DNA from: an uncultured Acidimicrobiia bacterium | Lineage (GTDB): Bacteria; Actinomycetota; Acidimicrobiia; Spongiisociales; ZC4RG35 | Length of the DNA: 64,000 nt | NCBI GenBank assembly: GCA_963840175.1 | Contig: CAWIXU010000004.1 | Span: 9,288 to 73,287, forward strand | Direction of reading: 5' to 3' | In this document: positions 9,776 to 54,085 of the stretch, piece by piece | Position numbering within the stretch: the stretch's first letter is position 1 | How the letters are laid out: every line of letters begins with the position of its first letter | The notes under the pieces: generated by a model | Told to the model about the DNA's origin: nothing | Databases searched by the model: none | The model's input: the letters and a program-made list of their open reading frames with translations, nothing else | Translations under genes and position numbers: made by a program

Positions 9776-11045
9776 ATGGCGGTTGTTGGCAATGGACCCG
9801 AAACAGAGTGCAGGCGTGACGTCGAAGAGCTGGACTCACCGCGGGGCTTCAAGGCACCGGGCACTGCTCGCATGATCGCCGGCTCGCTGGTCGGCGCGGT
9901 GGCGGCCTACCTCTTCCAGGTGCGTCGGCGTGCGCAGCGTCTGGGGACGGAAGCCTTCGCGCCGATCGCCGTCCTGTGGACCGTCTTCTTCATCGTCGCC
10001 ACTGTGATCGTCTGATTCCTCTGGAGCATTTCGTGACCCGCGAGGTGGGGCGAGGACGACGGGTGCTGCGTTCGGATCGAGCGGCGATGATCCTCTGATC
10101 CTCCTCTCACCGGCAACGCTGATCGCGGCTGTTCGTATTATCTGATGCGGGACCGCCTCTTTGCCGGCGAGTCGATCTTTGCGTTCCAGGCCTTCCTTCT
10201 GACGATCGGGTTTGGATTGATGCAGGTCGGCAAAGGCATCCTGGCCGGACATCGGCAGTTTGCTCGTTACGGGGCGCGTCCTGGGCTCGAAGGAATCATA
10301 CGGCTCTTGGCGGCCGTCATCTTCCTCGCGCTGTCGGCCAGCGCCGTCTCGCTCGGTTGGGCCATGGTGGCCGCGCCTCTCGGCGATCTTCTTCGTCACG
10401 ACCCTGGAGCCACGATCGGGAGACCGTCGCCGGAGTCGTCGCGACGCCGGCCCGCGGGTTCTTGTCTTCTTACGTTGCGGGCGCGGCAGCTTCCCAGCTT
10501 CTACTGGCCGGAGCCCCGCTCGCGGTAGCAGCTCTCGGTGGCAACGAGCATCTGCGTAGCGTCATGTTCGTCACCTTCACTCTGTATCGGGCGCCGCTGA
10601 CGCTGATTTACAACCTGCAGGGCCGAGTTCTTTCACTCCTGGTCCGCCTCGAAAACGGCGACGCGATTCGACGTCTGGATCGACCAGGGTGGCGACCTTC
10701 GGAGTCGGCATGATCGCGGTCGCCGGTCTGGTCGGATGGTTGGTCGGGCCGGCCGTCGTCGAGCTGCTTTACGGGCAGGATGCTCGTCCGATCGCACTCG
10801 TCGCAGCTTGTGCGGCGGCCGGCGTTATCGCCGCCTCGATCACGCAGATCCTTTCGCAGGCGCTGGTGGCGGGAGGATCAACCGGCGAGTTGGCCGGCGC
10901 GTGGGTCGGCGGCCTCGTCGTCGGGCTGGGGACGATGGCGCTTCTGGAACGGGCCTCCCGACGTGCGAGTGGCGGTCGGCTTCCTCGCCGGCGGAGGTTG
11001 TTCGCCCTGGCTTTGGCGACTTGGCGCATTCTCCGTCCGCGTTGA
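9776..11045 (+). CDS. Polytopic membrane protein, probable polysaccharide flippase (Wzx/MOP-like), frameshifted
   Basis: Four consecutive hydrophobic fragments (9776-10015, 10145-10528, 10357-10713, 10689-11045), e.g. IFAFQAFLLTIGFGLMQVGKGILAGH, FVTFTLYRAPLTLIYNLQGRVLSLLVR, IAVAGLVGWLVGPAVVELLYGQDARP. Family assigned from composition and context only. Confidence 0.4.
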
Positions 11046-11450
11046 CATCCACTCGATATGCGCTCGCCGCAATGCCGGCGACATTCTCTTGATGGCCCCG
11101 TCATCGAGGGGTTGAATTCGGTCCCGAGCGATGATCACGTTCCCGTCGAGGTGAACGAGCCCGGCTGATAGCAAAGTCGAGAGGTGCAAGGGCCGCCGTA
11201 GGGAGTTGCCGCGGAAACCTGCTTGCACGATGCGCAACAGGTCAGCGATCGCTTCTACGCCCAGAACTGCGGACCAAAATCTCCGGACGTACAGATCGGT
11301 TGGGGCGAACCCGGACTCGCTTTTCATGATGGAGACGAGATAGAGCGGACGGCGGGCGACTGTCGGTCGGAGCGCCTCGTCCGGAAGCGGTGCGGCCAAT
11401 GTTGCATAGGGAGGACATGGCAACGGCTTCCGGGACGAGACACTCCTCAC
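10878..11450 (-). CDS. Hypothetical protein (small helical, possibly winged-helix-like)
   Basis: 190-aa ORF; internal start MKSESGF (11327) is more plausible. APTDLYVRRFWSAVLGVEAIADLLRIV..RRPLHLSTLLSAGLVHLDGNVIIARDRI. 3' end overlaps the preceding gene, so the true stop is uncertain. Confidence 0.3.
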   Translation of the reverse strand: MRSVSSRKPLPCPPYATLAAPLPDEALRPTVARRPLYLVSIMKSESGFAPTDLYVRRFWSAVLGVEAIADLLRIVQAGFRGNSLRRPLHLSTLLSAGLVHLDGNVIIARDRIQPLDDGAIKRMSPALRRAHIEWMSTRTENAPSRQSQGEQPPPARKPTATRTSGGPFQKRHRPQPDDEAADPRAGQLAG

Positions 11451-11561
11451 GCTTACGAAGTATCAAGAACCGTTAACTACCGTCAAGTCCCTTAGAAACC
11501 TTCTTTTCGCGACTTCTGGATGCTTCAGCTTCTCCCCGGAGCGGGGATAGCGCGCGATCGC

Positions 11562-12126
11562 GTTTTCTTCCCCCGGAGGGGGGAGTACCCGAGCGAAGCG
11601 AGGGGGTAGGGGGCGTTTTCTCGAGACCCAGGAGCTCAACCCTCTTCTATTCCCCTCGAAAAGGAACTACTCGTTCAACATGGCCCGACCCCGTCACACC
11701 GACCTCGCCGCGAACGAGAGCACGGGAGCTTCAGAAACGGGATGACCGTCTCAGAGGCGCGGGTGTGGCAGGTGATCCGCGGCGGACAATGCGGCGCCCG
11801 GTTCCGTCGGCAGGTTCCGATCGGACGGTGGATCGTCGACTTCGCCAGTCTGCAAGCCACGACTGGTGCTCGAAATCGATGACGAGTCACACGACTGGCG
11901 TGACGAAACGGAACGCATCGAGTACATCGAAGCGGAGGGTTTTCCGATTTTGCGGCTGACAAACAAATACGTCGCCGAGGACCTCGGCGCCGTTCAGCGA
12001 ACGGTGAGCTTGTGGGTGGCGGAGCTCAAGGCAGGGCGAAGGCCGGAGTAGGGATCGCGTCTGGAGAGAACGCCCCCCTCGTCTGCCTCCTTCGTCGGCA
12101 GACACTCCCCCCTCCGGGGGAGAAAC
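11562..12126 (+). mobile_element. DUF559-nuclease cassette copy 1, bounded by ~60-bp imperfect terminal inverted repeats
   Basis: Left terminus 11562-11622 GTTTTCTTCCCCCGGAGGGGGGAGTACCCGAGCGAAGCGAGGGGGTAGGGGGCGTTTTCTC. Right terminus 12064-12126 GAGAGAACGCCCCCCTCGTCTGCCTCCTTCGTCGGCAGACACTCCCCCCTCCGGGGGAGAAAC. Homologous end-to-end with 41552-42118. Degenerate solo termini at 11530-11550 and 12132-12153. Confidence 0.6.
11680..12051 (+). CDS. DUF559 (Vsr-like PD-(D/E)XK) endonuclease-domain protein, copy 1, two frame changes
   Basis: ATG 11680 MARPRHTDLAA.. Then MTVSEARVWQVIRGGQCGARFRRQVPIGRWIVDFAS.., then ..LEIDDESHDWRDETERIEYIEAEGFPILRLTNKYVAEDLGAVQRTVSLWVAELKAGRRPE (ORF 11866-12051). Paralog of the intact ORF 41675-42043. 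Confidence 0.75.
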
Positions 12127-12175
12127 GGGAGATCCCCTCCGGGGGGAGAAATTCAGGTCTGGGGATGAAACGGAT

Positions 12176-14752
12176 TTAGCCCGAGGGTGGCGCAGGGGCG
12201 GCGGCCTGGCCGACGGTGATGTACACCGGGCTCTTGTACGTCATCGCCGTTCCCGGCCCGGGGGTCTGAGCGAGAACGACATCGACCTGGGCGGGGTCGG
12301 TGACCGGCACGTAGGTCGCGTACACGTCGACCCAGGTCCCAGTTGAGTAGATGAATCGGTTGATCGTTCGGTAGGCCTCGCTGATCGGTAGGCCGATCAC
12401 ACTCGGCAACGCGCCGCCAGGGACCTGGCCGTTCGAGACATATATACGAATCGGAAGCCCGGCTTCGACTTCGGCTCCCGAACCGAGCGACTGGAAAACG
12501 ACGGTGCCCGCGGCCTGCAGCGAGGGAATCGGGGTTCACGTTGGGGATGAGTTTGGCCTCGGTCGCCAACGACACTGCCTCGGCTTCGGTCTTGCCGATG
12601 AGATAGGGAACGATGGTGGTCGGGGGCTTGAGGAACGGCTGGAGCTCCTCTTCGGTCAGGCGTGGAAAGTCGAGTGCTTCGACATCGGTCAGCACCATCC
12701 GCATGAACTCGGCCCAGATCGGAGCCGGGACCGAACCACCGAAGACCCGTTCGTAATACTCACCGTGGATGCGAACGTTGCGCAGGGGAACCTGATCTCG
12801 CTCGTACCCCACCCAGACCGCAGTCGTGTACTGCGGAACGAAACCGACGTACCAGGCGTCGCGATAGTCCTGGTGGGTGCCGGTCTTTCCACCCTGGGGC
12901 CGACCGATGGCGGCTCGCTCGGCCGTTCCTTCCGCGGTCGGCACTTCGAGCAGCGGGATTCGCGCTGCCTCGGCGATCGGCGCGGCGATCACCTGCTGCT
13001 GCTCGACCTGGTGCTGGTAGAGCACCTGGCCGTCCTCGTCGAGGATGCGGTCGATCAGATAGGGCTCGGCGTAGAGGCCGTTGGTGGCGAAGGACGAATA
13101 GGCGGAAGCCATCTCCAAGGTCGAAACTGCACCGGTCCCCAGCACGATCGAAGGCACCGGCTGGCAGCGGTGAGGTGATCCCCATTCGGTGCGCGGTCTC
13201 CACTACCTTCTCCGGCCCTACCTGCAAGGAGAGCTGGGCGTAGATCACATTGATCGATCGAGAGGTGGCTTCCTGGAGGGTGATGCGGCCGGCGCTGGCC
13301 CCGGCATTCGACACGGTCCACTTGTTGGGATCGGGCCCATCCGAGCAGATCGTCGGGCAGGTCAGGATGCGAGGGCTCGACCCGTCATATGTGTTGCCGA
13401 GCGTGATGCCGTTCTCGAGCGCCGCGACCAGACCAAACGGCTTGAACGCCGAACCGGGGTTACGTCGACCCTGGACGGCGAGGTCGAACTGGCTCTGTTC
13501 GAAGGGGAGCCCCGAAGCCATCACCTCGACCGCCCCGGTCTGGTTGTTGACCATCGTCAAAGCTCCAGTTGGTGAGCAAGAGTTGGCCTCGGCGTACGAG
13601 GTCAGGTTCTCGATCGGCTCGCTGGGAAAGATTCTCGTGCAGAGTTGCAGGTTCTCTTCGTAGGAATAGAAGGGGAGCCACTCGAGCAGCATCGCATTCG
13701 CCGCTTGCTGCAAATTGAGATCGATGGTCGTTTCGATGGTCAGGCCCCCGCCACCGACGCAGTTGACATCGTCGGATGGGCAACCGAAGACCGAGATGGC
13801 GCGCTCCTCCAGGGTCTGGCCGAGAAAATCGAACTCGTGACGCGAGAGGTCGGACAGCTGCCGCATCACCTCGGTGCGCACGTGTTCCGCCTCGCCGCGG
13901 AACTCGATGTGCTCGAGCACCCCAAGGGGTCTTGACTTGGCGATCTCCGCCTGAGATTCAGTGGTCCAGTCCTGTTCGAGCATGAGGTCGATGACGTCGT
14001 TGCGCCGATCGAGAACTACCTCTGGATTGTCGCCGAGGGTCGTAGAGCGAAGGGTTGCGGATGAGCACCGCGAGGGTGGCGGCCTGATCCAGGGTCAGCT
14101 CGGACATCTCGCGGTGGAAGAACTCACGGGCCGCGGTCTTGACCCCGTAGGCGCCGGCACCGAAGTAGACCGAGTTCATGTAGAACTCGAGGATCTTGTC
14201 CTTCGAGTGGCGACGCTCGAGCTCGGCGGCGATAAACGCCTCTTTGATCTTCCGCTCGATCGTGACCTCGTCGCCGACGAAGACGTTTTTCACGACCTGC
14301 TGGGTGATGGTCGAACCGCCGCGGGTGTTGCCGCTGCGGAAGTTGTCGAGGGCAGCCGAGGCGATGGCCGGGAACGAGACGCCCTGATGGTCGTAGAAGC
14401 CTTTGTCCTCCGCCGCCAGGATCGCGTGTTGAAGGAGCAACGGCACCTCGTCGATCGGGGCCGGCTCGGAGTTGCGCCCGTCGTGGAGCTCGCCGATGAT
14501 TTCTCCGCTTGCCCATATCCGCGACACCCGTGACAGGTCGGGGAGGGTCAGAGTCAACGTCTCGACTTCAGGGACGTACTCGGCTCTTACCTTGTCGATG
14601 GCGGCATAGGCGGAGTTGGCGCCGAGGAAAGTGAAGAGGCCAACCCAGGTGCTGCCCAGGAGCGCGATCGACAGCAGTCCCGCCAGAGCCGGGAACCAGC
14701 GGCCACGACGCTCGCGCGCTTCCAGTTGGTGGATGAGGGATCGATTGGCCAT
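12176..14752 (-). CDS. ponA: Class A penicillin-binding protein (PBP1A: transglycosylase + transpeptidase + 2 PASTA-like repeats), frameshifted
   Basis: GT51 motifs AILAAEDKGFYDHQGV and RGGSTITQQVVKN. Transpeptidase motifs GSAFKPF (SxxK), VSNAG (SxN) and GGKTGTHQD (KTG). C-terminal VPYLIGKTEAEAVSLATEAKL and MPSVIGLPISEAYRTI. ORFs 13958-14752, 12760-13983, 12153-13157, 12176-12409. Confidence 0.85.
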
Positions 14753-37728: not shown

Positions 37729-39069
37729 ATGAGCGGAGTTTTCAAGGCCTACGACATCCGAGGGCGAACCGACATCGGTGAGCTCACCCCGGAGCTGGCC
37801 ACGGCGGTCGGAGCCGCTTTTGCCGACCTCACCGGCGCCGAACCAGATCGCGGTCGGGCGGGATTGTCGAGCGTCGTCACCGGCGATGTCGGAGGCACTG
37901 ATCGATGGGATCACCGGCCAGGGGAGCCTCGGTCCTCGCTCTCGGCGAGGTCGCGACCGACTTCGTCTACTACGTCTCCGGCAGCCGGTCGGTCCCCGGG
38001 GTGATGATCACGGCGTCGCACAACCCGGCCGAATACAACGGGATCAAGCTTTGCCGGGAAGGAGCGGCCCCGGTGGGCGAGGACACCGGCCTCAAGGAGA
38101 TCGAGAGGATGGTGGCCGAACCGTCCATGGCCGAGCGACCGTGCGGGGGCATCGGTCGAGACCCTCGATGCCCGCGAGGGCTACGTCAACCATCTGCTCG
38201 CGATCGTCGACGAAGCGGCAATGTCGCGCTGCGAGGTGGCGGTCGACGGCGGGCAACGGCATGGCCGGGGCGGTGGTCGAGGCAGTCTTCGAGCGCATTC
38301 CTCCCACCATCATCGGGCTCTATCTCGAACCCGATGGGACCTTTCCCAATCATCCCGCCGATCCGCTGCAGCCCGAGAACCTGGTCGATGTCATCGCGCT
38401 GGTCAAGCGCGGAGAATGCCGATCTCGGGGTTGCCTTCGACGGCGACGCCGATCGGGCGGTCTTCATCGACGATCAGGGCGAGCCGCTCTCGGGAAGCAC
38501 CACCACGGCCCTGATCGCCCGGTGGTTCCTGGCCCGCCAGCCCGGGGCCACGATCGTCCACAACCTCATCACCTCACGGGCCGTGCCGGAGATCGTCGAG
38601 CTCGCTCGGCGGCAAACCGGTCCGAACCCGGGTCGGTCACTCCTTCATCAAGCAGGTGATGGCCGAGACCGGAGCCGTCTTCGGTGGCGAGCACTCCGGT
38701 CACTACTACTTCGCCGACAACTTCCGGGCCGACTCCGGGATGCTGGCGATGCTGGTGCTCCTCCAGGTCATCTCCGAGTCGGGGAGGAAGCTGTCGGAGA
38801 TCCGGAGCGAAGTCGAGCCGTACTGCCGCCTCGGGCGAGATCAACATTCAGCGTGGCCGATCAGAAGGCTGCCATGGATCGGGTCGAGGAGGAGTTCGCG
38901 GACGCCGAGCTCGACGATCTCGACGGGCTGACGGTCTCGTGGCCCGACCGCTGGTTCAATCTGCGGGCTTCGAACACCGAACCGTTGCTGCGCCTCAACG
39001 TCGAAGGCCCGGACCGACACAGTCGGTCGAAGAGCTGAGCGCGAAGGTCCAAGCCGTGATCGGAGGTGA
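37729..39069 (+). CDS. manB: Phosphomannomutase/phosphoglucomutase, frameshifted
   Basis: MSGVFKAYDIRG, GVMITASHNPAEYNGIKL (phosphoserine loop), GVAFDGDADR (Mg site), GGEHSGHYYF, WFNLRASNTEPLLRLNVEG. At least 5 frame changes; stop not cleanly resolved. Confidence 0.85.
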
Positions 39070-39073
39070 GCCG

Positions 39074-39283
39074 ATGCCGCTCATTGACCCCGTGCTTGCT
39101 GCGATCATGGTCTGCCCGTTCGATCACGGCGACCTCTTCGAGGACGAGGCCACGTCCCGGCTCGTCTGCGCGGTCTGCGGCCGTGCCTACCCGGTTGACG
39201 ACGGGATACCGATCATGCTCATCGAGGAGGCCGAGCTCCCGGGGGACGGCCCAGCAGAACGGGACGGTCCCGATGCCGGCTGA
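39074..39283 (+). CDS. Trm112-family zinc-ribbon protein
   Basis: MPLIDPVLAAIMVCPFDHGDLFEDEATSRLVCAVCGRAYPVDDGIPIMLIEEA, preceded by GGAGG. Confidence 0.8.
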   Translation: MPLIDPVLAAIMVCPFDHGDLFEDEATSRLVCAVCGRAYPVDDGIPIMLIEEAELPGDGPAERDGPDAG

Positions 39284-40273
39284 GGAAATGGAGAAGATGA
39301 TCGCCGGTCTTGGCGGACAGCTGCGTTGGGCTGCCGAGCCTGACGCACCGCGACCCGATCCCGGTCCCGGGCGGGTCTGATTGTGGCCGGGATGGGCGGC
39401 TCGGGCATCTCGGGCGATTTGGTCGCGGTGCTGGCGGCGGTGCCCGGTAACCGTCCACAAGAGCTACGGGTTGCCAGCTTGGGCGCGAACCGGCCCCCGG
39501 CTCGTGGTCGCGATGTCCTACACCGGCAACACCGAGGAAACGCTGAGCGCCGTCGAAGCGGCGACCGGCCTTGGGCTGACTCCCGGCGGTGGTCACGCTC
39601 GGGAGGGAAGCTCGGGGAGATGGCCGCGGCCAACGGATGGCCGATCGTCACGGTGCCCGGCGGGCTCCAGCCGCGGGCCGCCCTCGGCTACATGCTCGGG
39701 TCGTCTGCTGCACCTGGTCGAGGATGCGGTCGATCTCAAGCCCGGCGATCTGGCGGCGGCGGCCGACCTGGTCGATCGATCACCGAGCGGGCTCGGGCAC
39801 GACCTGGCAGCCGACCTCGCCGCCGGACTCCACGACCGGATCGCGATCGTCTACGGGATCGGCGGTCTCACCGCTCCGATCGCGCAGCGTTGGAAGACCC
39901 AGATCAACGAGAACGCCAAATGGCCCGCGTGGTGCAACGCGATGCCAGAGCTCGATCACAACGAGATCGTTTCCTGGACCTCGTTGTCGGCGGTGACGAG
40001 CCGCCACGTCGGGATCATCAGCCTCAGCGACGACTCCGAGAGCCCCGGATCGATGGACGCTCGATTCCGCCACACCTCCCGGCTCACCGAGCACGATGTG
40101 CCCTGGGTCGGCGAGGTGTGGTCGCAGGGGGTCAGCCGTCTGGAACGGATGGTGAGCCTCTGCGCCATGGGAGACTTGGTCTCCTCGAGCTGGCCCAGGC
40201 CGGAGGCATCGATCCGGTGCCGCGATACCCGAGCTCGAATCGCTCGAAACAGCTACTCGCCAAGGAGTCCTGA
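39273..40273 (+). CDS. SIS-domain bifunctional phosphoglucose/phosphomannose isomerase-like protein, frameshifted
   Basis: VAGMGGSGISGDLVA, VVAMSYTGNTEETLSAVEAA, GGLQPRAALGYMLG, IAQRWKTQINENAKWPAWCNAMPELDHNEIV, GDLVSLELAQAGGIDPVP. Confidence 0.75.
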
Positions 40274-40274
40274 A

Positions 40275-41526
<1,252 letters not shown>

Positions 41527-41551
41527 GCCGAGGCCGGAAGACCAGAAGACC

Positions 41552-42118
41552 GTTTCTGTCTCTCCCCCGGAGGGGGGAGTACCGAAGCGAAGCGGAGGGG
41601 AGGGGGGCGTTATCTCTTAACGACGACGCTCAACCCTCTTCTATCCGGCCCGAAAAGGAACTAGTCGTGAGTGGATGCCAAGACCTGGTCACACCAACCT
41701 CGCCGCGACGAGAGCACGCGACCTTCGAAAGGAAATGACCGTCTCTGAGGCCCGGGTGTGGCAGGTGCTGAAAGGCAGGCAATGCGGGGCCCGGTTTCGC
41801 CGCCAGGTCCCGATCGGTTGTTGGATCGTGGACTTCGCCAGCCTGCGGCCTCGTCTTGTGCTCGAAATTGATGACCAATCACATGACTGGCGCGACGAAA
41901 CGGAGCGCATCGAGTACATCGAGGCGAGGGGCTTTCCGATTCTGCGCCTGACCAATGAATACGTAGCGAAGGATCTAGGTGCTGTTCAGCGAACGATCAG
42001 CTACTGGGTCGCAGACCTCAAAGCAGGACGACGACCGGAATAGGTTTCGAGCTAGAGAAAACGCCCCCCTCGTCTGCCTCCTTCGTCGGCAGCCACTCCC
42101 CCCTCCGGGGGGAGAAAC
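41552..42118 (+). mobile_element. DUF559-nuclease cassette copy 2, bounded by ~60-bp imperfect terminal inverted repeats
   Basis: Left terminus 41552-41616 GTTTCTGTCTCTCCCCCGGAGGGGGGAGTACCGAAGCGAAGCGGAGGGGAGGGGGGCGTTATCTC. Right terminus 42055-42118 GAGAAAACGCCCCCCTCGTCTGCCTCCTTCGTCGGCAGCCACTCCCCCCTCCGGGGGGAGAAAC. Homology with copy 1 stops at these ends. Confidence 0.6.
41675..42043 (+). CDS. DUF559 (Vsr-like PD-(D/E)XK) endonuclease-domain protein, copy 2 (intact, 122 aa)
   Basis: ARDLRKEMTVSEARVWQVLKGRQCGARFRRQVPIGCWIVDFAS..LVLEIDDQSHDWRDETERIEYIEARGFPILRLTNEYV matches the DUF559 pattern (LR..T.aE..LW..LR....FRRQ.piG.yIvDF...viE.DG..H). Confidence 0.8.
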   Translation: MPRPGHTNLAATRARDLRKEMTVSEARVWQVLKGRQCGARFRRQVPIGCWIVDFASLRPRLVLEIDDQSHDWRDETERIEYIEARGFPILRLTNEYVAKDLGAVQRTISYWVADLKAGRRPE

Positions 42119-42170
42119 CGAATTGGGAGACGTGGCCACTCCCCTGCAGGGAGAGCCGAAGGAGAGACAA

Positions 42171-42404
42171 CTAGGCGGTCGACCAGCAGGGGTCGTATTC
42201 GCAGCCGAACTCGAACGGCGGAAGAGTTTGCGGGATCGCCAGCGCCAGCACAACCGTGATTATCGCGAGCACGAGAAAAGCGGTTAAGTCAGTTTTTCGC
42301 GAAGATTGATGGGTGAAGGCACTGAGGTCAGTGCAGACCTTGTACGAAACCAGGGTGATCGCGACCAGATAGAGAACCGTCACCGTGCCCTGCCCCGAGC
42401 CCAC
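42171..42404 (-). CDS. Small two-TM hypothetical protein downstream of P450 (visibly lower GC)
   Basis: 77-aa ORF starting 17 nt after the P450 stop. Two hydrophobic helices (TVTVLYLVAITLVSY, LTAFLVLAIITVVLALAI). No homology recognised. Confidence 0.3.
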   Translation of the reverse strand: MGSGQGTVTVLYLVAITLVSYKVCTDLSAFTHQSSRKTDLTAFLVLAIITVVLALAIPQTLPPFEFGCEYDPCWSTA

Positions 42405-42421
42405 ATGGGGCGATCATAGAA

Positions 42422-43570
42422 CTACGCCTCCCATACAGCGGGAACCGAACGCGGCTTGCGGAACACCAGACCGGTTGGTCCGTCGACTTCCTGGGCCAGG
42501 CGCAGTCCCGGCCAGTGGTCGAGGGCCGCGTCGAGAGCCGCCAGAGTTTCAAGCTTGGCGAGATGGATGCCAATGCACGCATGCGGACCTTCCGCGAACG
42601 CAAGATGAGTTCGAGCGTTGGCGCGATGAATGTCGAATCGGTCGGGATCGACAAAGACGGACGGATCGCGATTCGCGGCTGTCAAAGAAACGATCACCAA
42701 GTCACCCCGGTTGATCTCTGCCCCGGCCAGCTGCACATCTCTTGTCGCATACCGGTCGACGCGTCCTGCCGCTGGCTCCAACCGAAGCGATTCCTCCATC
42801 GCTTGACGGCCGAGCGACCGATCTTCGATGATCATTTGCAGCTGTTCGGGATGGGTGAGGACATGCCAGAAAAGGCTCGTTGTCATTCCCTCGCTGGTCT
42901 CGATGCCACCGAACATCATCACGGCGGCGTTCGAGACCACCTCTTGCTCACCCAGCTGCCCACTCACTTCGGTCAGAAGCCCGTGCTGGCGGGTAGCGCT
43001 TTCCCGAACTGCGCGCCCGAGATCGCCCATTGCCTCGTGGCCAGCTCCAGTGACGTCTTGACCGGCTGAGATTCGATCGACGTCAGCCACGATCCGCTCG
43101 TACCAGCTGAGAACCGTGTCGACGTCCTCATCGACCAGATCGAGGGCTGCAGTCACCACGGCCACTGCCAGAGGACCGGCCAGCTCACGACGAATTTCGG
43201 CTTGGCCGGTGTCCGCCAAACGTTCGGTAAGGCGGCGCGCCTCTTGATGTACTCGATCAACGAATCGCTCCTTGACTTTTGCATGGACCAGCGCTGCCGC
43301 GAAAGGATCTCGATGTCGACGATGCTCTTCCCCGTCGAGTGACAACATGCTCGGACCGACCACCTGGCCAGTCGAGAAACGAGGGTCATCAACCGTGTAG
43401 GTCTGTGCGTCGCGCATCACTTCAACACAGAGGTCACGCCGGGTCACTAACCACCCATCGAGGGCCGGAACCCAACTCACCGGCTCGTGAGCGCGCAACG
43501 CCGCCAGATGCGGATAGGGGTCACCAGCCAGCTGTTCAAGCGTGACGGCCGCGCCGAGCGGGAATGCCAT
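42422..43570 (-). CDS. Cytochrome P450 (intact)
   Basis: Heme-thiolate loop FAEGPHACIGIHLA, EXXR ESLRLEP, I-helix AVMMFGGIETSEG. Homology starts at MAFPLGAAV (ATG 43570; alternative ATG 43600). The 559-aa ORF extension upstream is rejected. Confidence 0.85.
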   Translation of the reverse strand: MAFPLGAAVTLEQLAGDPYPHLAALRAHEPVSWVPALDGWLVTRRDLCVEVMRDAQTYTVDDPRFSTGQVVGPSMLSLDGEEHRRHRDPFAAALVHAKVKERFVDRVHQEARRLTERLADTGQAEIRRELAGPLAVAVVTAALDLVDEDVDTVLSWYERIVADVDRISAGQDVTGAGHEAMGDLGRAVRESATRQHGLLTEVSGQLGEQEVVSNAAVMMFGGIETSEGMTTSLFWHVLTHPEQLQMIIEDRSLGRQAMEESLRLEPAAGRVDRYATRDVQLAGAEINRGDLVIVSLTAANRDPSVFVDPDRFDIHRANARTHLAFAEGPHACIGIHLAKLETLAALDAALDHWPGLRLAQEVDGPTGLVFRKPRSVPAVWEA

Positions 43571-43609
43571 GAAGCCAATCTTGTCACACCGTTCCGTCAT
43601 GGTGAACCG

Positions 43610-44173
43610 ATGCTTTGTGTGGGCTGCGGAAGGTTGGGCGATGACCTCTGTCGCGCCTGCCGGCAAAATCTGGTGGAGGCGCCCGACCGTTTGCTGGCCT
43701 CCGGATTGCTGGTTCGCTCGTGCTTCGAGCACACGGGCGTCGCCAAAACAGTCGTGCACGCCTTCAAATATCAGGGAAGCGATCGCGCAGGGTGGCTGCT
43801 TGCTCGAGCCCTCGCCTGCCTGCTGCCGCCGACGTGGCACTCTGGTGCCGCTACCTCCGCGAGCTGGCGCACCGTCACTTACGGAGTCGACCCCGCTCGT
43901 GAGCTGGCCAAAAAAGTTTCGTTGCTGACCGGCAGACAGATTTGGATGGGTTTGGAGCCACCATTGCACAGCTCCGCCCAGGCCGGACGCGTACGAACCG
44001 AACGCGACCCTCCGGCGTTTACGGTCAGCGAGGAGCCTCCCACCGACTTGATCCTGATCGACGATGTTGTCACCACTGGCCGAACCCTGATGAGCGCCCA
44101 ACGTTCGCTCGGCCAGGGCGACCGTCCAAAACCGGTTCTTTTGGCCCTGTCCGCGACAGCTACCAGTGACTAG
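43610..44173 (+). CDS. comF: ComF-family phosphoribosyltransferase-like protein
   Basis: N-terminal Cys pairs MLCVGCGRLGDDLCRAC. HAFKYQG. PRTase loop LILIDDVVTTGRTL. Conserved position upstream of hpf-secA. Confidence 0.7.
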   Translation: MLCVGCGRLGDDLCRACRQNLVEAPDRLLASGLLVRSCFEHTGVAKTVVHAFKYQGSDRAGWLLARALACLLPPTWHSGAATSASWRTVTYGVDPARELAKKVSLLTGRQIWMGLEPPLHSSAQAGRVRTERDPPAFTVSEEPPTDLILIDDVVTTGRTLMSAQRSLGQGDRPKPVLLALSATATSD

Positions 44174-44228
44174 TCTTTTCTCGGGAGTGTCGATAGTCCA
44201 AGTGCCAAAAGCTCTATTGGGGGAGTGA

Positions 44229-44765
44229 ATGGAAGTTCGTGTTCATACGCGTAACACCAGCATCGACGATCGGGTCAGGGAACTAGCCGCCGAAAAGCTC
44301 GGCCACGCCGCGCGGGTGTTCGAAAGCCAGGTGGCCGACATGGATGTCGAGTTCTCCGAGGAGCACAACCCCCGCCTGGCAGCCGAGCGCTACCGCCTCG
44401 AGGTCACCACGGCGGCAGCTGGCAAGGTGATCCGGGTGGTTTCAACGGCGGCCTCGGCCGAAACGGCCGTTGATCAGGCCGTGGACCGCCTCAACCTCCA
44501 ACTACGGCGTCTTAAAGGGAAATTGATCGAAAAACACCGGAAACACGCCGTCCATGACGGTTTGGTCGAGCCTCCCACAGAACCCACGAACGAGATTGTT
44601 CGTATCAAGCAATTCGTTATGAAGCCGATGACCGTAGAGGAAGCAGTGCTGCAGATGGAGTTGCTTGGTCATGACTTTTTCTTCTTTCACAACGACGGCA
44701 CCCAGCGCCAGAGCGTGCTGTATCGCCGTCGGGACGGTCAATTGGGTTTGATCGAATCAGCGTGA
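44229..44765 (+). CDS. hpf: Ribosome hibernation-promoting factor (long form, intact)
   Basis: N-terminal RaiA/YfiA-type domain. C-terminal IVRIKQFVMKPMTVEEAVLQMELLGHDFFFFHN..SVLYRRRDGQLGLIE. GGGGAG precedes the ATG. Confidence 0.9.
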   Translation: MEVRVHTRNTSIDDRVRELAAEKLGHAARVFESQVADMDVEFSEEHNPRLAAERYRLEVTTAAAGKVIRVVSTAASAETAVDQAVDRLNLQLRRLKGKLIEKHRKHAVHDGLVEPPTEPTNEIVRIKQFVMKPMTVEEAVLQMELLGHDFFFFHNDGTQRQSVLYRRRDGQLGLIESA

Positions 44766-45418
44766 AGAATCCGACTGTTCTTGTTGTCGACGACGCGCCT
44801 ATTTTTCAGGCGGGTTTGGCGGCTGCCCTCAAAGTGGAGGGCTTCGACGTCGTGGCGATTGCCTCCGATGCCCTCACTGCAATTGCTGAAGCCCGCCGTC
44901 ACCGCCCGGCTCTGGTTGTTCTGGACGTGTTGATGCCGGGGATCTCGGGTCTCGATGTCGTTGACAAGATCACCGACGCCTCGCCGGGAACCAAGGTTGT
45001 GCTGCTGACGTCGAGCGACTCCGAGGAGGACTTGCTCACGGCGATCAAGGCAGGAGCTTCCGGCTACATCATCAAAGACACGCCATTCCCCAAGCTGGTG
45101 GCGGCGATGAATGAAGTCGTCAAAGGGGGAGCCGTAGTGTCGCCCAAGCTTGCGGCCCGGCTCTTTGATGTGGTGGCCCATCTGCTGCGCAATCGGGATC
45201 TCAACGCCACCCGCCGGCCCTCTCTCACCGGTCGCGAGGTGGAGATCCTGCAATGGATCGCCGATGGTCGAACCTCGCGCGAGATAGGCGAACAGCTCTA
45301 CATCTCCGAGAACACCGTCAAGAACCACGTCCGCAACATCTTGGACAAGCTGGGGATGCAGTCCCGGCACGAAGCGGTCCGCTACGCCGAACACGCGGGA
45401 CTTCTGAATCGCCGATAG
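44762..45418 (+). CDS. NarL/FixJ (LuxR-type) response regulator (intact), no kinase nearby
   Basis: REC domain VLVVDDAPIFQAGL..VVLDVLMPGISG..VVLLTSS. HTH LTGREVEILQWIADGRTSREIGEQLYISENTVKNHVRNIL. GTG overlaps the hpf stop (GTGA). Confidence 0.85.
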   Translation: MKNPTVLVVDDAPIFQAGLAAALKVEGFDVVAIASDALTAIAEARRHRPALVVLDVLMPGISGLDVVDKITDASPGTKVVLLTSSDSEEDLLTAIKAGASGYIIKDTPFPKLVAAMNEVVKGGAVVSPKLAARLFDVVAHLLRNRDLNATRRPSLTGREVEILQWIADGRTSREIGEQLYISENTVKNHVRNILDKLGMQSRHEAVRYAEHAGLLNRR

Positions 45419-45426
45419 GCGATTCA

Positions 45427-45504
45427 GAGACGTCAGACATCAGACGTCAGACATCAGACTGGGATTCCATCTGAAGTCTGAAATCTGATGTCTGATGTCT
45501 TCTC
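45427..45504. repeat. Intact long imperfect hairpin built from GTCAGACATCAGAC units (terminator-like, between the RR gene and secA)
   Basis: Left arm 45435-45459 pairs with right arm 45476-45500 (about 23 of 25 positions, counting G-T). The 16-nt loop contains TGGGATTCC. Starts 9 nt after TAG 45416-45418. Confidence 0.8.
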
Positions 45505-45528
45505 ACCCCCGATACCATTCCGGCCTGA

Positions 45529-48124
45529 ATGTCCATCTTTTCCAAGCTGCTCAAGGCCGGTGAAGGCAAGACCCTGCGCGAATTCGAGCGTCTCGTCGTC
45601 GAGGTCAATGCCCTCGAACCGACCATCTCAGCGCTGGATGACGCTCAACTAGCCAACCAGACCGTCGAGTTCCGGCGCCGGCTCGACGCCGGGGAGCCGC
45701 TCGATGACCTGGCCGTCGAGGCCTTCGCCACGGTCCGGGAGGCAGCGCAACGAGTCATCGGGGAGCGTCACTTCGACGTCCAGGTGATCGGCGCTTTGGC
45801 ACTCCATCGGGGGATGGTGGCCGAGATGAAGACCGGCGAGGGCAAAACCCTGGTTTCGTCGATGCCCGCCTATCTCAACGCCCTTCCTGGCACCGGCGTG
45901 CACATCGTCACCGTCAACGACTACCTCGCCTCCCGCGACGCCGACTGGATGGGCGCCATCCATCGTTTCCTCGGGCTCAACGTCGGGCTCATCCAAACCG
46001 GTATGGAACCCGGAAAGCGGCAATCCGGCCTACGCCGCCGACATCACCTACGGAACCAACAACGAGTTCGGGTTCGACTATCTGCGTGACAACATGGCGA
46101 TGCGGGCGAGCGACCGTGTCCAGCGCGGCCACGTTTATGCGATCGTCGATGAGGTCGACTCGATCCTGATCGACGAAGCCCGCACCCCGTTGATCATTAG
46201 CGGCCGGCTGTCGGATGCGGCCAAGTGGTATCGAGACTTCGCTCGAATTGCGAACCGGTTACGACGCGATGAGCACTACGAAGTCGATGAAGCCAAGCGA
46301 CAGGTATTGACCACCGAGGAAGGCGTCGGATTCGTCGAAGAGATACTCGGAGTCGAAAACCTCTATGACCACGCCGCGGTCGACTTCGTCCACCATCTCG
46401 AGTCATCGCTGCGAGCCAAGGAGCTCTACCAGCGGGACGTGGAATATCTCGTTGACCAGGGCGAAGTCAAGATCGTTGACGAATTCACCGGGCGCGTACT
46501 CGAAGGTCGTCGTTATTCAGAAGGGCTTCACCAGGCCATCGAGGCGAAGGAAGGGGTGAAGATCAAAGAAGAGAATCAGACCCTCGCCACGATCACTCTC
46601 CAGAACTACTTCCGGCTCTACCAGAAGCTTGCCGGGATGACCGGCACCGCCGAAACCGAAGCGGCCGAGCTGGCGCAGATTTATGGACTCGAAGTGCTGG
46701 TCATCCCGCCGAACCGGACCGTGGCGCGAGCCGACCAACCCGACCTGGTCTTTAAGTCAGAGGATGCCAAGTTCCAAGCAGTCGTCGATGACATCGTCGC
46801 GCGCCATGAGGCGCAACAGCCCATCCTGCTGGGCACCGTCTCGATCGAGAAGTCCGAGCGTCTCTCGAAGATGTTGCAAAAGCGGGGCATCGAGCATGAA
46901 GTGCTCAACGCCAAGAATCATGCCCGGGAGGCTGAAATCATCGCGCAGGCGGGGCGTCCCGGCGCGGTGACCGTGGCCACCAACATGGCCGGGCGGGGAG
47001 TCGACATCAGGCTGGGTGGGAATCCCGAAGGTCTGGCGCGCGTCGAGCTCAAGCGCCAGCAGGTGCCGGAAGAGGAGTTCGAGAAAAAGCTCGCCGAAAC
47101 CACTGCCCGCTACGCCGCCGAGATCGCTCCGATCAAGGAAAAGGTGATCGAAAGCGGTGGGCTTTACGTCGTGGGCACCGAGCGTCACGAATCCCGCCGG
47201 ATCGACAATCAGCTGCGTGGTCGTTCGGGCCGCCAGGGTGATCCGGGCGAGTCCCGGTTCTATTTGTCGCTGGGAGACGACCTGATGCGTCGTTTCTCTG
47301 GGGATCGAGTTTCGTCGTTGATGGATCGGATGAAGATTCCCGACGACGTACCCATCGAGGCCGGCATGGTGACCAAGGCCATCGAACGAGCGCAGAAAAC
47401 GGTGGAAGCACAGAACTTTGAGCTTCGCAAGAACGTCCTCAAATTCGATGAGGTGATGAACAAGCAAAGAGAAGTCATCTACGACTGGCGCGTGGATTTG
47501 CTCGAGGCGTCGGGTGAGGATCTGGTCACAGAATGGATCGAGGTCGTAGTCGCCGATACCGTCGAGGCGGTTTTTCCACCCGAGCTCGCACCGTCGGAAT
47601 GGGATTGGGAATTGCTCAACAAAGAGCTAGTTCAGATTTATCCGTCAACGCTCAAAGAGCCGGGACCGGAAGGATCCTCGCTGGAGGATGTCATCGACGC
47701 GGCCGTCGAAGAGGCCAACGCGGCCTATGCAGCGAAGAGCAAGGAATTGGGGCTCGAGAACATGCGCCAGGTCGAGCGCCAGGTGATTCTGTCGGTGATC
47801 GACAACAAGTGGCGCGAGCACCTATCCGAAATGGACTACCTGCGCGCTGGAATCGGCCTGCGCGCCATGGGCCAACGCGATCCGCTGGTCGAATATCAGC
47901 GCGAGGGCTACTCGATGTTCAGCGAACTGGTCGAATCGGTGAAGCGTGACACCGTTCGCTATTTGTTCCACGTCCAATTGGCGGAGCCCGCCGCCCCGGC
48001 TGCCCCCAAAGTCGTCAACGATGATCAGTCAAAGTCAATTCGAAGCAGCGGCGCCGTGGGCCGCAACGATCCCTGCCCATGTGGCAGTGGCAAGAAATAC
48101 AAACGCTGCCACGGTGCGGCGTAA
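45529..48124 (+). CDS. secA: Preprotein translocase ATPase SecA, one frame change near 46027
   Basis: [21 protein letters not shown], ..[24 protein letters not shown] across the junction, [30 protein letters not shown]-terminal zinc motif [14 protein letters not shown]. Confidence 0.95.
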
Positions 48125-53670: not shown

Positions 53671-53673
53671 TCG

Positions 53674-54023
53674 TGGAGGCGGCGGGAATCGGACCCGCGT
53701 CCCATGAGTCGTCAGCGCCGGCATCTCCGAGCGCAGCCGTCGGCGAGCTTGTCGGCAAGAAGGACCCCAACGGCGGGCTTCCCACTCGCTTATCCGGAGT
53801 TGATCTTTGCCCTCCGGTCCCGGATCCCGGAGGACGCATCCTGCATTGCGACGCCCGATTCCGGCGAGGCAGGCGCCCACCGGGCGGACGGGCTGCGTTA
53901 TTTAGGCAGCCAGTGCGAAGTTGTCTTCGGCACTTGTGTTTGTTTCCGGCTCTTTAACGAGGTTCCGGAGACCTCGGCTCGCTTCCGACGCATCAACACT
54001 CATGGTCGAAACCATTTCGCCCC
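53674..54023 (-). ncRNA. ssrA: tmRNA (SsrA), about 350 nt
   Basis: 5' GGGGGCGAAATGGTTTCGACC (rc of 54003-54023). 3' GGACGCGGGTCCGATTCCCGCCGCCTCCA (rc of 53674-53702). Internal tag ORF ..GCC GAA GAC AAC TTC GCA CTG GCT GCC TAA ATAA = (A)EDNFALAA*. Confidence 0.9.
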
Positions 54024-54085
54024 CATGGGCTGATCGCAATTCTACGGGTATTCAGAGAATCCGTGTTCGCCTATCTTCTGCGGAA

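Follow-up and report, generated by a model that had tools for sequence, protein, structure and literature searches.

G/C-rich foldable repeats described as BoxC, PIT elements or triplex motifs have been known in E. coli since the 1990s and occur in more than 260 genomes (Holder et al. 2015, NAR, PMC4666352; earlier work by Bachellier and by Hoyne & Maher as cited there). They carry a C-block, a complementary G-block and a mirror-image G-block on one strand, are intergenic and multi-copy, occur as singles and as inverted pairs made of two subtypes, and are associated with local rearrangement. The most thorough study found no transposase or integrase near them, reported no associated protein and left their 'mechanism and evolutionary origins' open (PMC4666352). 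In contrast, REP/REPIN repeats, which are also short, palindromic and intergenic, are partnered by RAYT (TnpA_REP) transposases. DUF559 (PF04480) is a widespread family whose standalone members mostly have no known role; it includes NGO0050 (PDB 3hrl), E. coli YcjD and Caulobacter VsrA, and shares its catalytic domain with the EDxHD homing endonuclease I-Bth0305I (PDB 3r3p).

Here we analyzed a window of 64,000 nucleotides from an uncultured Acidimicrobiia bacterium (GCA_963840175.1, contig CAWIXU010000004.1, positions 9,288 to 73,287), in which two small DUF559 genes each sit between an inverted pair of repeats of the BoxC/triplex-motif kind. The same pairing recurs in several phyla, including at E. 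coli ycjD, which tentatively suggests that this nuclease family is the missing protein partner of the repeats.

Results

Two DUF559 units bounded by inverted modules

A preliminary description of the window, made from sequence alone, reported two DUF559 genes packaged as ~565-bp units with terminal inverted repeats, and this observation was confirmed at the positions given. The units are 80.9% identical (462 of 571 columns), homology stops at the GTTTC...GAAAC ends, and the flanks are unrelated. The components are as follows (+, forward strand; -, reverse strand;., no strand assigned):

11562..12126 (+), DUF559 unit, copy 1: left module, leader, ORF, tail and right module, aligning end to end with copy 2
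11563..11613 (+), left terminal module of copy 1: (G)TTTTC, hairpin A CTTCCCCC-GGA-GGGGGGAG, hairpin B around GCGAAGC, then a G-run (37.4 bits, E 2e-9)
11614..11679 (+), leader of copy 1, with the block CAACCCTCTTCTAT...GAAAAGGAAC (RBS-like) shared with copy 2
11680..12051 (+), DUF559 ORF of copy 1, reading as 122 aa once three single-base insertions are removed
12073..12126 (-), right terminal module of copy 1, inverted, with hairpin B GTCTGCC...GGCAGAC (37.8 bits, E 1.6e-9)
11530..11550 (.), hairpin-A-like palindrome (TCTCCCCGGAGCGGGGAT) outside the left end, a possible module remnant with three mismatches to the core motif
12132..12153 (.), hairpin-A-like palindrome (ATCCCCTCCGGGGGGAGAAA) outside the right end, a possible module remnant found in two pairs (I3 and I5) of the repeat search (9.3 bits, E 1.4)
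41552..42118 (+), DUF559 unit, copy 2, between the ahcY stop (41526) and the 3' end of a P450 gene
41558..41607 (+), left terminal module of copy 2, with the outer GTTTCT at 41552-41557 and an odd end, GTTTCTGTCTCTCCCCC (39.4 bits, E 5e-10)
41675..42043 (+), intact DUF559 / EDxHD Vsr-like nuclease gene, 122 aa
42064..42118 (-), right terminal module of copy 2, inverted (44.5 bits, E 1.3e-11)
42137..42155 (.), degenerate hairpin-A-like palindrome (CTCCCCTGCAGGGAG) just outside copy 2 (partial match, 8.5 bits, E 2.5)

Bit scores refer to a covariance model of the terminal module, R1. When run over the whole window with filters off, R1 found exactly four significant matches, namely the four termini (E 1e-9 to 1e-11; next full-length match E 1.4), and a generic triplex-motif detector (k=8, at most 1 mismatch) likewise found these four and nothing else. 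The fragments that had been described as solo termini beside copy 1 are short C-run/G-run palindromes that are not significant on their own, although similar hairpin-only remnants sit beside units elsewhere, both at 42137-42155 and at L122, the syntenic locus of a related MAG.

To confirm the family assignment, for which a PF04480 profile had been proposed as the check, we searched both copies. Copy 2 matches PF04480 at 87 bits against a cutoff of 20.6 and this is its only Pfam hit, whereas the C-terminal fragment of copy 1 scores 20.4 bits, with HMM hits in two frames. The copy 2 protein also matches NF007294 (YcjD) at E 2e-16, below its equivalog cutoff, and PDB 3hrl at E 3e-12. Among 31 homologues E64, D66 and H70 are invariant and D53 is nearly invariant, and the motif reads LEIDDQSHD. 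An AF2 model (pLDDT 88) is predicted to adopt a Vsr-like restriction-endonuclease fold, with Foldseek top hits to 3hrl (E 2e-8, TM 0.92 on the target) and 3r3p (prob 1.0) and only weak hits to Vsr itself (1cw0/1vsr); nuclease activity was not assayed. A search against PADLOC defence-system models gave no hit.

The copy 1 ORF is interrupted by single-base insertions near 11713, 11733 and 11854. With these removed it is 85% identical to copy 2 at the amino acid level, differences by codon position are 15/5/48, and there are 38 synonymous against 18 non-synonymous codon changes, and therefore the gene has been under purifying selection. The window has local indel noise, with 43 gap openings in 3 kb against a syntenic MAG whose ORFs are intact, and ahcY and PBP1A are also frame-broken. 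We therefore rejected a pseudogene reading of copy 1 as unproven.

No transposase or integrase lies in the unit, which holds a single 122-aa ORF, and no target-site duplication was found at 21 unit or doublet boundaries. At the gathering score the only Rfam match in the window is the tmRNA, and a search of copy 2 at an E-value threshold added only a sub-threshold CRISPR-DR58 (18 bits against 38, E 1.1). A promoter and terminator scan of copy 2 returned nothing.

The modules are a structural variant of triplex motifs

The module consists of GTTTC, hairpin A (C-run, GNA loop, G-run), hairpin B (variable stem, GNA loop) and a G-run that mirrors the first G-run, and it occurs as single modules, tandem arrays, inverted doublets and inverted doublets that enclose a DUF559 gene. 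MAFFT with RNAalifold on 62 modules recovered hairpin A but could not align the variable hairpin B, and the covariance model was therefore built from 25 gap-free 47-mers with a structure that we supplied. In 137 distinct module copies 98.7% of cells are paired, with 150 double-sided changes against 34.5 in shuffles and 7-17 in slid controls, though the alignment was fitted to the model and related copies inflate the counts. The position of the A/T interruption co-varies across all three blocks: CCTCCCCC / GGGGGAGG goes with GGAGGGGG in 12 of 12 parsed cases, and never with the other type (0 of 67). Folding energy alone is weak evidence, since as single-stranded DNA only the right-end modules beat shuffles (copy 1, -15.4 kcal/mol, z -3.6; copy 2, z -2.2) while the left-end modules do not (z about -0.2), so that covariation carries the argument. 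Hairpins are predicted by ViennaRNA, which models hairpins only; triplex formation as a single strand was not measured.

A one-sided association between gene and repeat

We next examined how modules and DUF559 genes are distributed. More than 119 module-bearing stretches turned up in mostly Acidimicrobiia MAGs, of which only 3 of 119 carry a DUF559, so that about 97% lack the gene; whole genomes were not checked for a copy elsewhere. Conversely, all DUF559 homologue loci fetched by protein are flanked by modules (loci L001, L003, L005, L006, L009 and L010, and L158, L159 and L161), as are DUF559 genes met by chance in L030, L044 and L052, and in about 130 kb of their flanks there are no other modules. 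Inward-facing module pairs enclose either 0-80 bp (about 14 cases) or 413-459 bp (7 cases, all DUF559). L-type and R-type ends differ in hairpin B, and the two window copies share module subtypes. Modules also cluster and nest within one another (L001, L009, L047), and repeats of this family often end contigs.

ORF-less doublets look like units with the ORF removed: they equal units minus the RBS-to-stop segment, related leader remnants and the tail are retained, some keep an AGGAA box, and L122 keeps the last ~15 codons.

The preliminary description had taken the units for minimal selfish cassettes whose only cargo is a nuclease, and this interpretation is only partly supported. The recurrent, duplicated unit of about 500-565 bp is real, it lacks a transposase and a target-site duplication, and we found no formal description of it, nor of the gene-repeat pairing, in literature searches on DUF559 (COG2852, ycjD), EDxHD enzymes, RAYT/REPIN and endonucleases, Vsr-like transposable elements, and very short patch with extragenic palindromes, which did not extend to subscription-only papers. 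However, the termini are not private to the gene: they are copies of a dispersed intergenic repeat family with the known BoxC/PIT/triplex-motif architecture. That description had named in advance, as a ground for rejecting its reading, a general REP-like intergenic element distributed independently of DUF559, and our counts fulfil this in letter but not in spirit: repeats often lack the gene, but the gene essentially never lacks the repeats. An element independent of DUF559 was therefore rejected in that form.

Inversion and decay at the ahcY site

Vertical inheritance with no empty-site polymorphism had likewise been set beforehand as a condition that would count against the reading, and it is partly fulfilled. 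At the ahcY site L122 carries the same insertion, inverted, decayed and ORF-deleted, which indicates vertical inheritance; the window and L122 share the odd outer end but have opposite interiors. About ten more distant relatives have this site empty. These also lack the neighbouring P450 gene, so a unit-only insertion has not been isolated, and the comparison of occupied and empty alleles, in which cleavage of the site was not assayed, leaves undecided whether the gene behaves as a homing endonuclease gene. L003 and L005 also occupy the same site in opposite orientations.

The pairing recurs in other phyla

To test generality, we chose 11 unrelated plasmid or chromid DUF559 loci from PLSDB by protein alone. 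Of these, 7 have a triplex motif within 250 nt, and 16 of 22 motifs lie in about 13% of the sequence (P 2e-10; per locus 3e-7); three loci have no adjacent motif, and a fourth (Neisseria) has motifs only 300-900 nt away. In E. coli, TM_ECO no. 9, one of the 23 K-12 copies, lies 168 nt downstream of ycjD, which is single-copy, yet 38% of complete E. coli genomes lack ycjD and all keep triplex motifs. The pairing recurs with lineage-specific repeat sequences in Actinomycetota, Alphaproteobacteria, Deinococcota, a cyanobacterium and E. coli. DUF559 proteins are also 14-fold enriched among inverted-repeat-flanked 'programmed inversion' targets (PMC9881135).

Discussion

Our preferred explanation, held with moderate confidence, is that each unit is the protein-coding member of a family of BoxC/PIT-like triplex-motif repeats, in a REPIN/RAYT-like partnership built on a Vsr-fold nuclease. 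What the data demonstrate directly is the module architecture and its covariation, the one-sided association, the bimodal content of inward-facing doublets (nothing, or DUF559), the retention of leader and tail in ORF-less doublets, the inversion and decay at an orthologous site, and the recurrence of the pairing in other phyla, each with its own repeat sequence. The mechanism, on the other hand, is our inference: the small EDxHD nuclease would recognise its own flanking modules, probably as a folded hairpin/triplex or as a cruciform, and nick or cut there, after which host repair or recombination would copy, invert, delete or multiply modules, with ORF-less doublets as non-autonomous derivatives. 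All support is comparative and no biochemical data exist. PD-(D/E)XK/Vsr enzymes hydrolyse DNA and cannot carry out strand transfer, and with no target-site duplication, how a module would reach a new site is unexplained. The module-bearing stretches without DUF559, the E. coli genomes without ycjD, the plasmid loci without adjacent motifs and the vertical inheritance at the one orthologous site examined also weigh against this view.

A broader and more tentative possibility is that the YcjD/DUF559 clade is the long-missing protein partner of these repeats across bacteria, recognising the folded hairpin/triplex form of its flanking modules and driving their copying, inversion and decay. This would be a second, independently evolved REPIN-RAYT-like system, based on a hydrolytic nuclease and a non-B DNA structure, and could also be the cause of the genomic instability reported at these motifs.

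Two alternatives are unlikely, to a similar degree. In the first, the repeats spread by other means and DUF559 is a free-standing homing endonuclease that cuts the centre of ORF-less inverted doublets and is then copied into them by double-strand-break repair, using the ~50-bp modules as homology arms. The exact central position of the ORF, the constant inner length, the lack of a target-site duplication, the shared module subtypes of the two window copies, and the fold match to I-Bth0305I, which cuts a pseudopalindromic site as a dimer (PMC3239194), are consistent with this. However, the leader sequence with an RBS-like AGGAA in ORF-less doublets and the last codons in L122 point to deletion derivatives rather than virgin targets, the 122-aa protein lacks the N-terminal DNA-binding region of I-Bth0305I, and in the window genome no empty doublets are seen in 64 kb. 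In the second, DUF559 is a host-serving repair or structure-specific nuclease that processes hairpin/triplex structures formed by the repeats at stalled forks, the repeats around the gene are regulatory or by-products of local repair, and nothing is selfishly mobile. Vsr and Caulobacter VsrA, a DUF559 protein, are repair enzymes (PMC12907096), TM loci are rearrangement-prone in E. coli (PMC4666352), and the vertical inheritance at ahcY, the single-copy ycjD and the purifying selection on both copies fit this view. It does not explain why the whole unit, leader included, is duplicated at two unrelated sites with homology ending at the module ends, or why the gene lies precisely between inward-facing modules in many lineages, and no promoter-like or terminator-like signal was found in the modules.

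It is very unlikely that DUF559 is a bystander, a short horizontally acquired gene that merely happens to lie where repeats tend to insert next to one another or into particular intergenic islands; clustering and nesting of modules and the many modules with no DUF559 nearby allow this, but the pairing recurs with lineage-specific repeats, holds for every homologue of the clade examined, has a fixed geometry and is enriched per locus. An assembly artefact (a collapsed or duplicated repeat, or a chimeric join) is effectively refuted despite the local indel errors and the repeats at contig ends, because the copies differ at 19% of positions in a codon-position pattern typical of real divergence and the same unit is found in independent assemblies.

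A specific, geometrically fixed pairing seen from Acidimicrobiia to E. coli K-12 gives both orphans, the repeats and the nuclease family, a hypothesis that can be tested directly in a model organism. If it holds, it would add a nuclease-based counterpart to the REP-RAYT paradigm and a natural enzyme that reads a hairpin/triplex DNA shape. There are also practical consequences, as these repeats break assemblies, inflate DUF559 gene calls, which read through the repeats, and probably underlie the reported enrichment of DUF559 among predicted 'programmed inversions'.

Comparison with known systems

The modules share with BoxC/PIT/triplex motifs the three consecutive blocks on one strand, the intergenic and multi-copy distribution (although the window itself holds only four copies), the inverted pairs of two subtypes, the association with local rearrangement and the absence of a nearby transposase or integrase; the Bacteroidota hits of our scan are canonical (GGGGGAG-TTA-GAGGGGG). 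They differ in the second loop, which is not the 1-6 nt of the ITxF definition but a whole extra hairpin of 12-25 nt with a GNA triloop (loop 1 is 3-4 nt), making the Acidimicrobiia version a structural variant rather than a canonical motif, as well as in the fixed GTTTC tag and in the recurrent DUF559 cargo.

With EDxHD homing endonucleases and other DUF559 proteins the gene product shares the catalytic domain and the conserved E/D/H/D residues, and this fold has a selfish-gene precedent. The gene is, however, intergenic and not in an intron or intein, its single-domain protein has no N-terminal NUMOD/HTH region, and it is flanked by structured inverted repeats that also exist without it. With MITEs and their autonomous transposons and with IS200/IS605 elements the units share terminal inverted, hairpin-forming ends and short ORF-less derivatives that keep both ends, and they lack a target-site duplication as IS200/IS605 elements do, but there is no DDE, HUH, serine or tyrosine recombinase, and the ends themselves occur as free single modules and in tandem arrays.

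As in REP/REPIN-RAYT systems, short palindromic intergenic repeats are dispersed as singles and as inverted doublets, one small gene is flanked by inverted copies of the repeat, the gene is usually low-copy and largely vertically inherited, and repeat sequences are lineage-specific. In our view the units would work like this system without being members of it: the protein is a predicted Vsr-fold PD-(D/E)XK/EDxHD hydrolase and not an HUH Y1 transposase (PF01797), no covalent-intermediate chemistry is available for strand transfer, the tag is GTTTC and not GTAG or CGTC, and the module has two hairpins plus a third mirror block.

Two diverged DUF559 units share their boundaries

Alignment of the two loci confirmed the preliminary description of a pair of DUF559 units in this sequence, and the observation itself stands. 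The units are 80.9% identical (462 of 571 columns), similarity starts and stops at GTTTC...GAAAC, and the flanks are unrelated. The features discussed here are as follows.

11562-12126, DUF559 unit, copy 1, with its ATG at 11680
12073-12126, right-end module of copy 1
41552-42118, DUF559 unit, copy 2
41675-42043, intact 122-aa ORF of copy 2
42064-42118, right-end module of copy 2
42171-43700 (-), cytochrome P450 gene, plus a small 77-aa ORF
53671-54024 (-), tmRNA gene

A profile search, which had been proposed as confirmation of the gene, matched the copy 2 ORF to PF04480/DUF559 at 87 bits against a cutoff of 20.6. Copy 1 is interrupted by three single-base insertions, and with these removed it encodes a full-length protein 85% identical to copy 2. 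Differences fall 15/5/48 on codon positions 1/2/3, with 38 synonymous and 18 non-synonymous codon changes, and both copies have therefore evolved under purifying selection. We do not call copy 1 a pseudogene, because the window has patches of indel error (38580-41616, 12153-14752 and 40348-41526): there are 43 gap openings in 3 kb relative to the syntenic locus L122 of a related MAG, whose ORFs are intact, while ahcY has compensating frameshifts and PBP1A is split over three frames, which looks like long-read homopolymer or low-coverage error and not gene decay. The right-end modules of the two copies are about 97% identical while the ORFs are 81% identical, pointing to strong constraint or gene conversion on that module.

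The termini have a triplex-motif architecture

Each terminus is a module of about 50 nt with four parts: GTTTC; hairpin A, consisting of CTCCCCCC, a GNA loop and then GGGGGGAG; hairpin B, a stem of variable sequence, usually with a GNA triloop; and a G-run (GAGGGGGG) that is the mirror image of the 3' arm of hairpin A. We built a covariance model from 25 gap-free copies and ran it over the whole window with filters off, which recovered the four termini at E 1e-9 to 1e-11. No other full-length module scores below E 1.4, and the next entries are hairpin-A-only matches on the opposite strand of the termini themselves (E 0.0035 and 0.7). The only Rfam match in the window at gathering score is the tmRNA gene (RF00023, 157.7 bits). 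Across 137 distinct copies from many genomes, 98.7% of cells are paired, with 150 double-sided changes against 34.5 in column shuffles and 7-17 when partners are slid, although that alignment was fitted to the model, so these counts lean towards the structure. The position of the single interruption co-varies in all three blocks: CCTCCCCC / GGGGGAGG is always followed by GGAGGGGG (12 of 12 parsed cases), whereas the other type never is (0 of 67).

The succession of C-block, complementary G-block and mirror G-block is the definition of the intrastrand triplex motif (TM), formerly called BoxC or PIT element, for which the E. coli consensus is CCCTCNCCC-N3-6-GGGNGAGGG-N3-GGGNGAGGG. That motif forms a triplex in vitro, occurs in more than 260 genomes, is found as singles and as inverted pairs of two subtypes, and marks rearrangement-prone loci, and for these motifs 'we never found... 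remnants of transposases or integrases' (PMC4666352). The Acidimicrobiia module differs in having a whole hairpin in place of the 3-nt second loop. In contrast, Bacteroidota and CPR genomes in our scan (tiles L016, L018, L020, L025, L035-L037, L045, L050, L057, L059, L068, L090, L091 and L105) carry a canonical triplex motif with the same GTTTC prefix (GTTTCTCCCCC-loop-GGGGGAG-TTA/TCA-GAGGGGG), the Bacteroidota hits having the canonical TTA loop. A second C/G palindrome is often nearby, and no DUF559 of this clade was detected in those 8-kb tiles.

Modules are dispersed, but the gene is almost always within them

The preliminary description had set out in advance that the terminal repeats might prove to be a general intergenic element distributed independently of DUF559 genes. 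A scan of one genome per species for GTTTCTCCCCC-N3-5-GGGGGAGT returned at least 119 stretches, most of them from Acidimicrobiia MAGs, of which only 3 of the 119 retrieved contain a DUF559, by tblastn and by a clade HMM on six-frame translations. The termini are therefore a dispersed intergenic repeat, often at contig ends. The reverse relation is almost absolute: every DUF559 homologue locus fetched by protein identity alone is flanked by modules, as are the three DUF559 genes met by chance, and in about 130 kb of sequence flanking these genes no other module occurs. Among these loci, L044 has two right-type modules, while L009 has lost its left module and has on the right, downstream of the gene, an array of at least seven modules about 1 kb long (10330-11300), much of which is called as part of a 490-aa ORF with no Pfam hit that is probably spurious. 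A nested composite also recurs in four different genomes (L001 3845-3960, L047 4250-4345, L054 2796-2960 and L031 729-830), in which a right-type module sits inside the loop of hairpin B of a left-type module, suggesting either a preferred insertion point or a conserved compound form.

Next, we examined the geometry of neighbouring modules. Inward-facing pairs enclose either 0-80 bp (about 14 cases) or 413-459 bp (7 cases); every one of the long class contains DUF559, and no other cargo was seen. ORF-less doublets from the related MAG MFD09206 align with the window units across four segments, namely the left module, a leader-like stretch (some keep an AGGAA box), the tail ...GAGAAAACGCCCCCCTC, and the right module, with the gap running from the RBS to just past the stop codon. 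No target-site duplication was found at 21 boundaries. In several Acidimicrobiia, seven-nucleotide tandem repeats (GAAGACC, CGTCTCC, CGCGATC, GGAAGGCG-like, CTGGAGA, CAAGTCG) sit just after stop codons and next to modules (window 41533-41551 and loci L143, L146, L140, L154, L095, L014 and L015), and the repeat unit differs between genomes at the same ahcY-downstream position.

The unit has been inverted and has decayed at the ahcY site

L122 (MAG MFD09206.bin.1.94) is syntenic with window 38580-46971 at 85-94% identity, and downstream of ahcY it has a unit of about 215 bp that keeps only the last ~15 codons of DUF559, in the opposite orientation. The ahcY-proximal outer end has the same peculiar sequence, GTTTCYGTCTCTCCCCC, in both genomes, and the insertion is therefore ancestral to both. 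The interior was flipped, most simply by recombination between the inverted modules, and it then decayed in one lineage. A second pair of relatives (loci L003 and L005) also has the unit at one site in opposite orientations.

Whether relatives have this position empty had been posed beforehand as a test, and we scanned metagenomes for the ahcY 3' end. In about ten more distant relatives, ahcY is followed directly by a comF-like gene, with no unit and no module. Those genomes also lack the P450 gene, so a unit-only insertion event has not been isolated. In the window and in L122 the P450 gene lies between the DUF559 unit and a comF-like gene, and it may have arrived together with the unit or separately.

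The gene-repeat pairing recurs in other lineages

More distant homologues (39-49% identity) from a Rhodospirillales MAG and from other contigs are flanked by different, lineage-specific C-run/G-run repeats. We then took 11 DUF559 loci from PLSDB plasmids and chromids, chosen by tblastn only, and ran a generic three-block detector over 6.3 kb around each. Seven of the 11 have a motif within 250 nt of the gene (Sphingomonas, Synechocystis, Sinorhizobium, Azospirillum, Qipengyuania, Deinococcus and Methylobacterium), and Qipengyuania has an inward-facing pair that forms a 551-bp unit. Two cyanobacterial loci and one Novosphingobium locus have no adjacent motif, and Neisseria gonorrhoeae, whose NGO0050 is the gene of PDB 3hrl, has three near-identical triplex motifs 300-900 nt away, at a ~280-nt period downstream of the gene (L173 3588-4181; the record is a whole chromosome filed as a plasmid in PLSDB). 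Overall, 16 of 22 motifs lie in the ~13% of sequence next to the gene (binomial P 2e-10; per locus 3e-7). Annotated DUF559 CDSs are over-extended through the flanking repeats, for example in Sphingomonas (L163 2857-3393) and at the C-terminus of protein P0045, with tails such as ...FPSPLVGEG, and repeat-derived peptide tails in this family are likely annotation artefacts.

In E. coli K-12 (NC_000913.3, 1351039-1351830), ycjD, a DUF559 gene, is followed by a partial inverted BoxC/TM over its stop codon, a duplicated fragment of the gene's own 3' end, and TM_ECO no. 9, which lies 168 nt downstream, while a perfect 17-bp AT-rich inverted repeat lies just upstream. ycjD is present in 3378 of 5426 complete E. 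coli genomes (62%), where it occupies the fabI-sapF site that holds the eefRABCD operon in other phylogroups (PMC12817139), whereas triplex motifs are present in all 5426 genomes. A survey of inverted-repeat-flanked 'programmed inversions' listed DUF559 proteins as 14-fold enriched, without comment (PMC9881135).

The protein is a bare catalytic domain

In the DUF559 protein, residues E64, D66 and H70 are invariant and D53 is nearly invariant (IVDF...LEIDDQSHD). The sequence matches PDB 3hrl at E 3e-12. For the AF2 model (pLDDT 88) the top Foldseek hits are 3hrl and 3r3p (I-Bth0305I), and Vsr itself is a weak match. I-Bth0305I cuts a pseudopalindromic site as a dimer (PMC3239194), and the protein here is a bare catalytic domain with a short N-terminal helix.

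Interpretation and relation to known systems

Our comparisons establish the module and its structural constraint, the one-sided gene-repeat association, the fixed geometry, the derivation of at least some ORF-less doublets from units, inversion and decay at an orthologous site, and recurrence across phyla. That the nuclease acts on its own modules, and that the resulting nicks or breaks, repaired by the host, generate copying, inversion, deletion and arrays, is our inference from these patterns. This model has weak points: a hydrolase cannot perform strand transfer, so colonisation of a new site is unexplained, many genomes or stretches have repeats without the gene, and no fresh insertion was caught. 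The main rivals are a homing-type gene that invades pre-existing doublets and a host repair nuclease for structures formed by the repeats, and they differ from the favoured model mainly in who benefits.

The interpretation offered in the preliminary description, a cassette bounded by its own terminal repeats, is supported in part: it was roughly the right kind of conclusion, but the termini are not private to the cassette, which makes the finding broader rather than weaker. The pairing of DUF559 with BoxC/PIT-type repeats, and the TIR-bounded unit, were not described in any of the literature that we could search, whereas the gene family, the repeat class and the REP-RAYT concept are all known. 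In the favoured model, the nuclease would do for its modules what a RAYT does for REPINs, with different chemistry.
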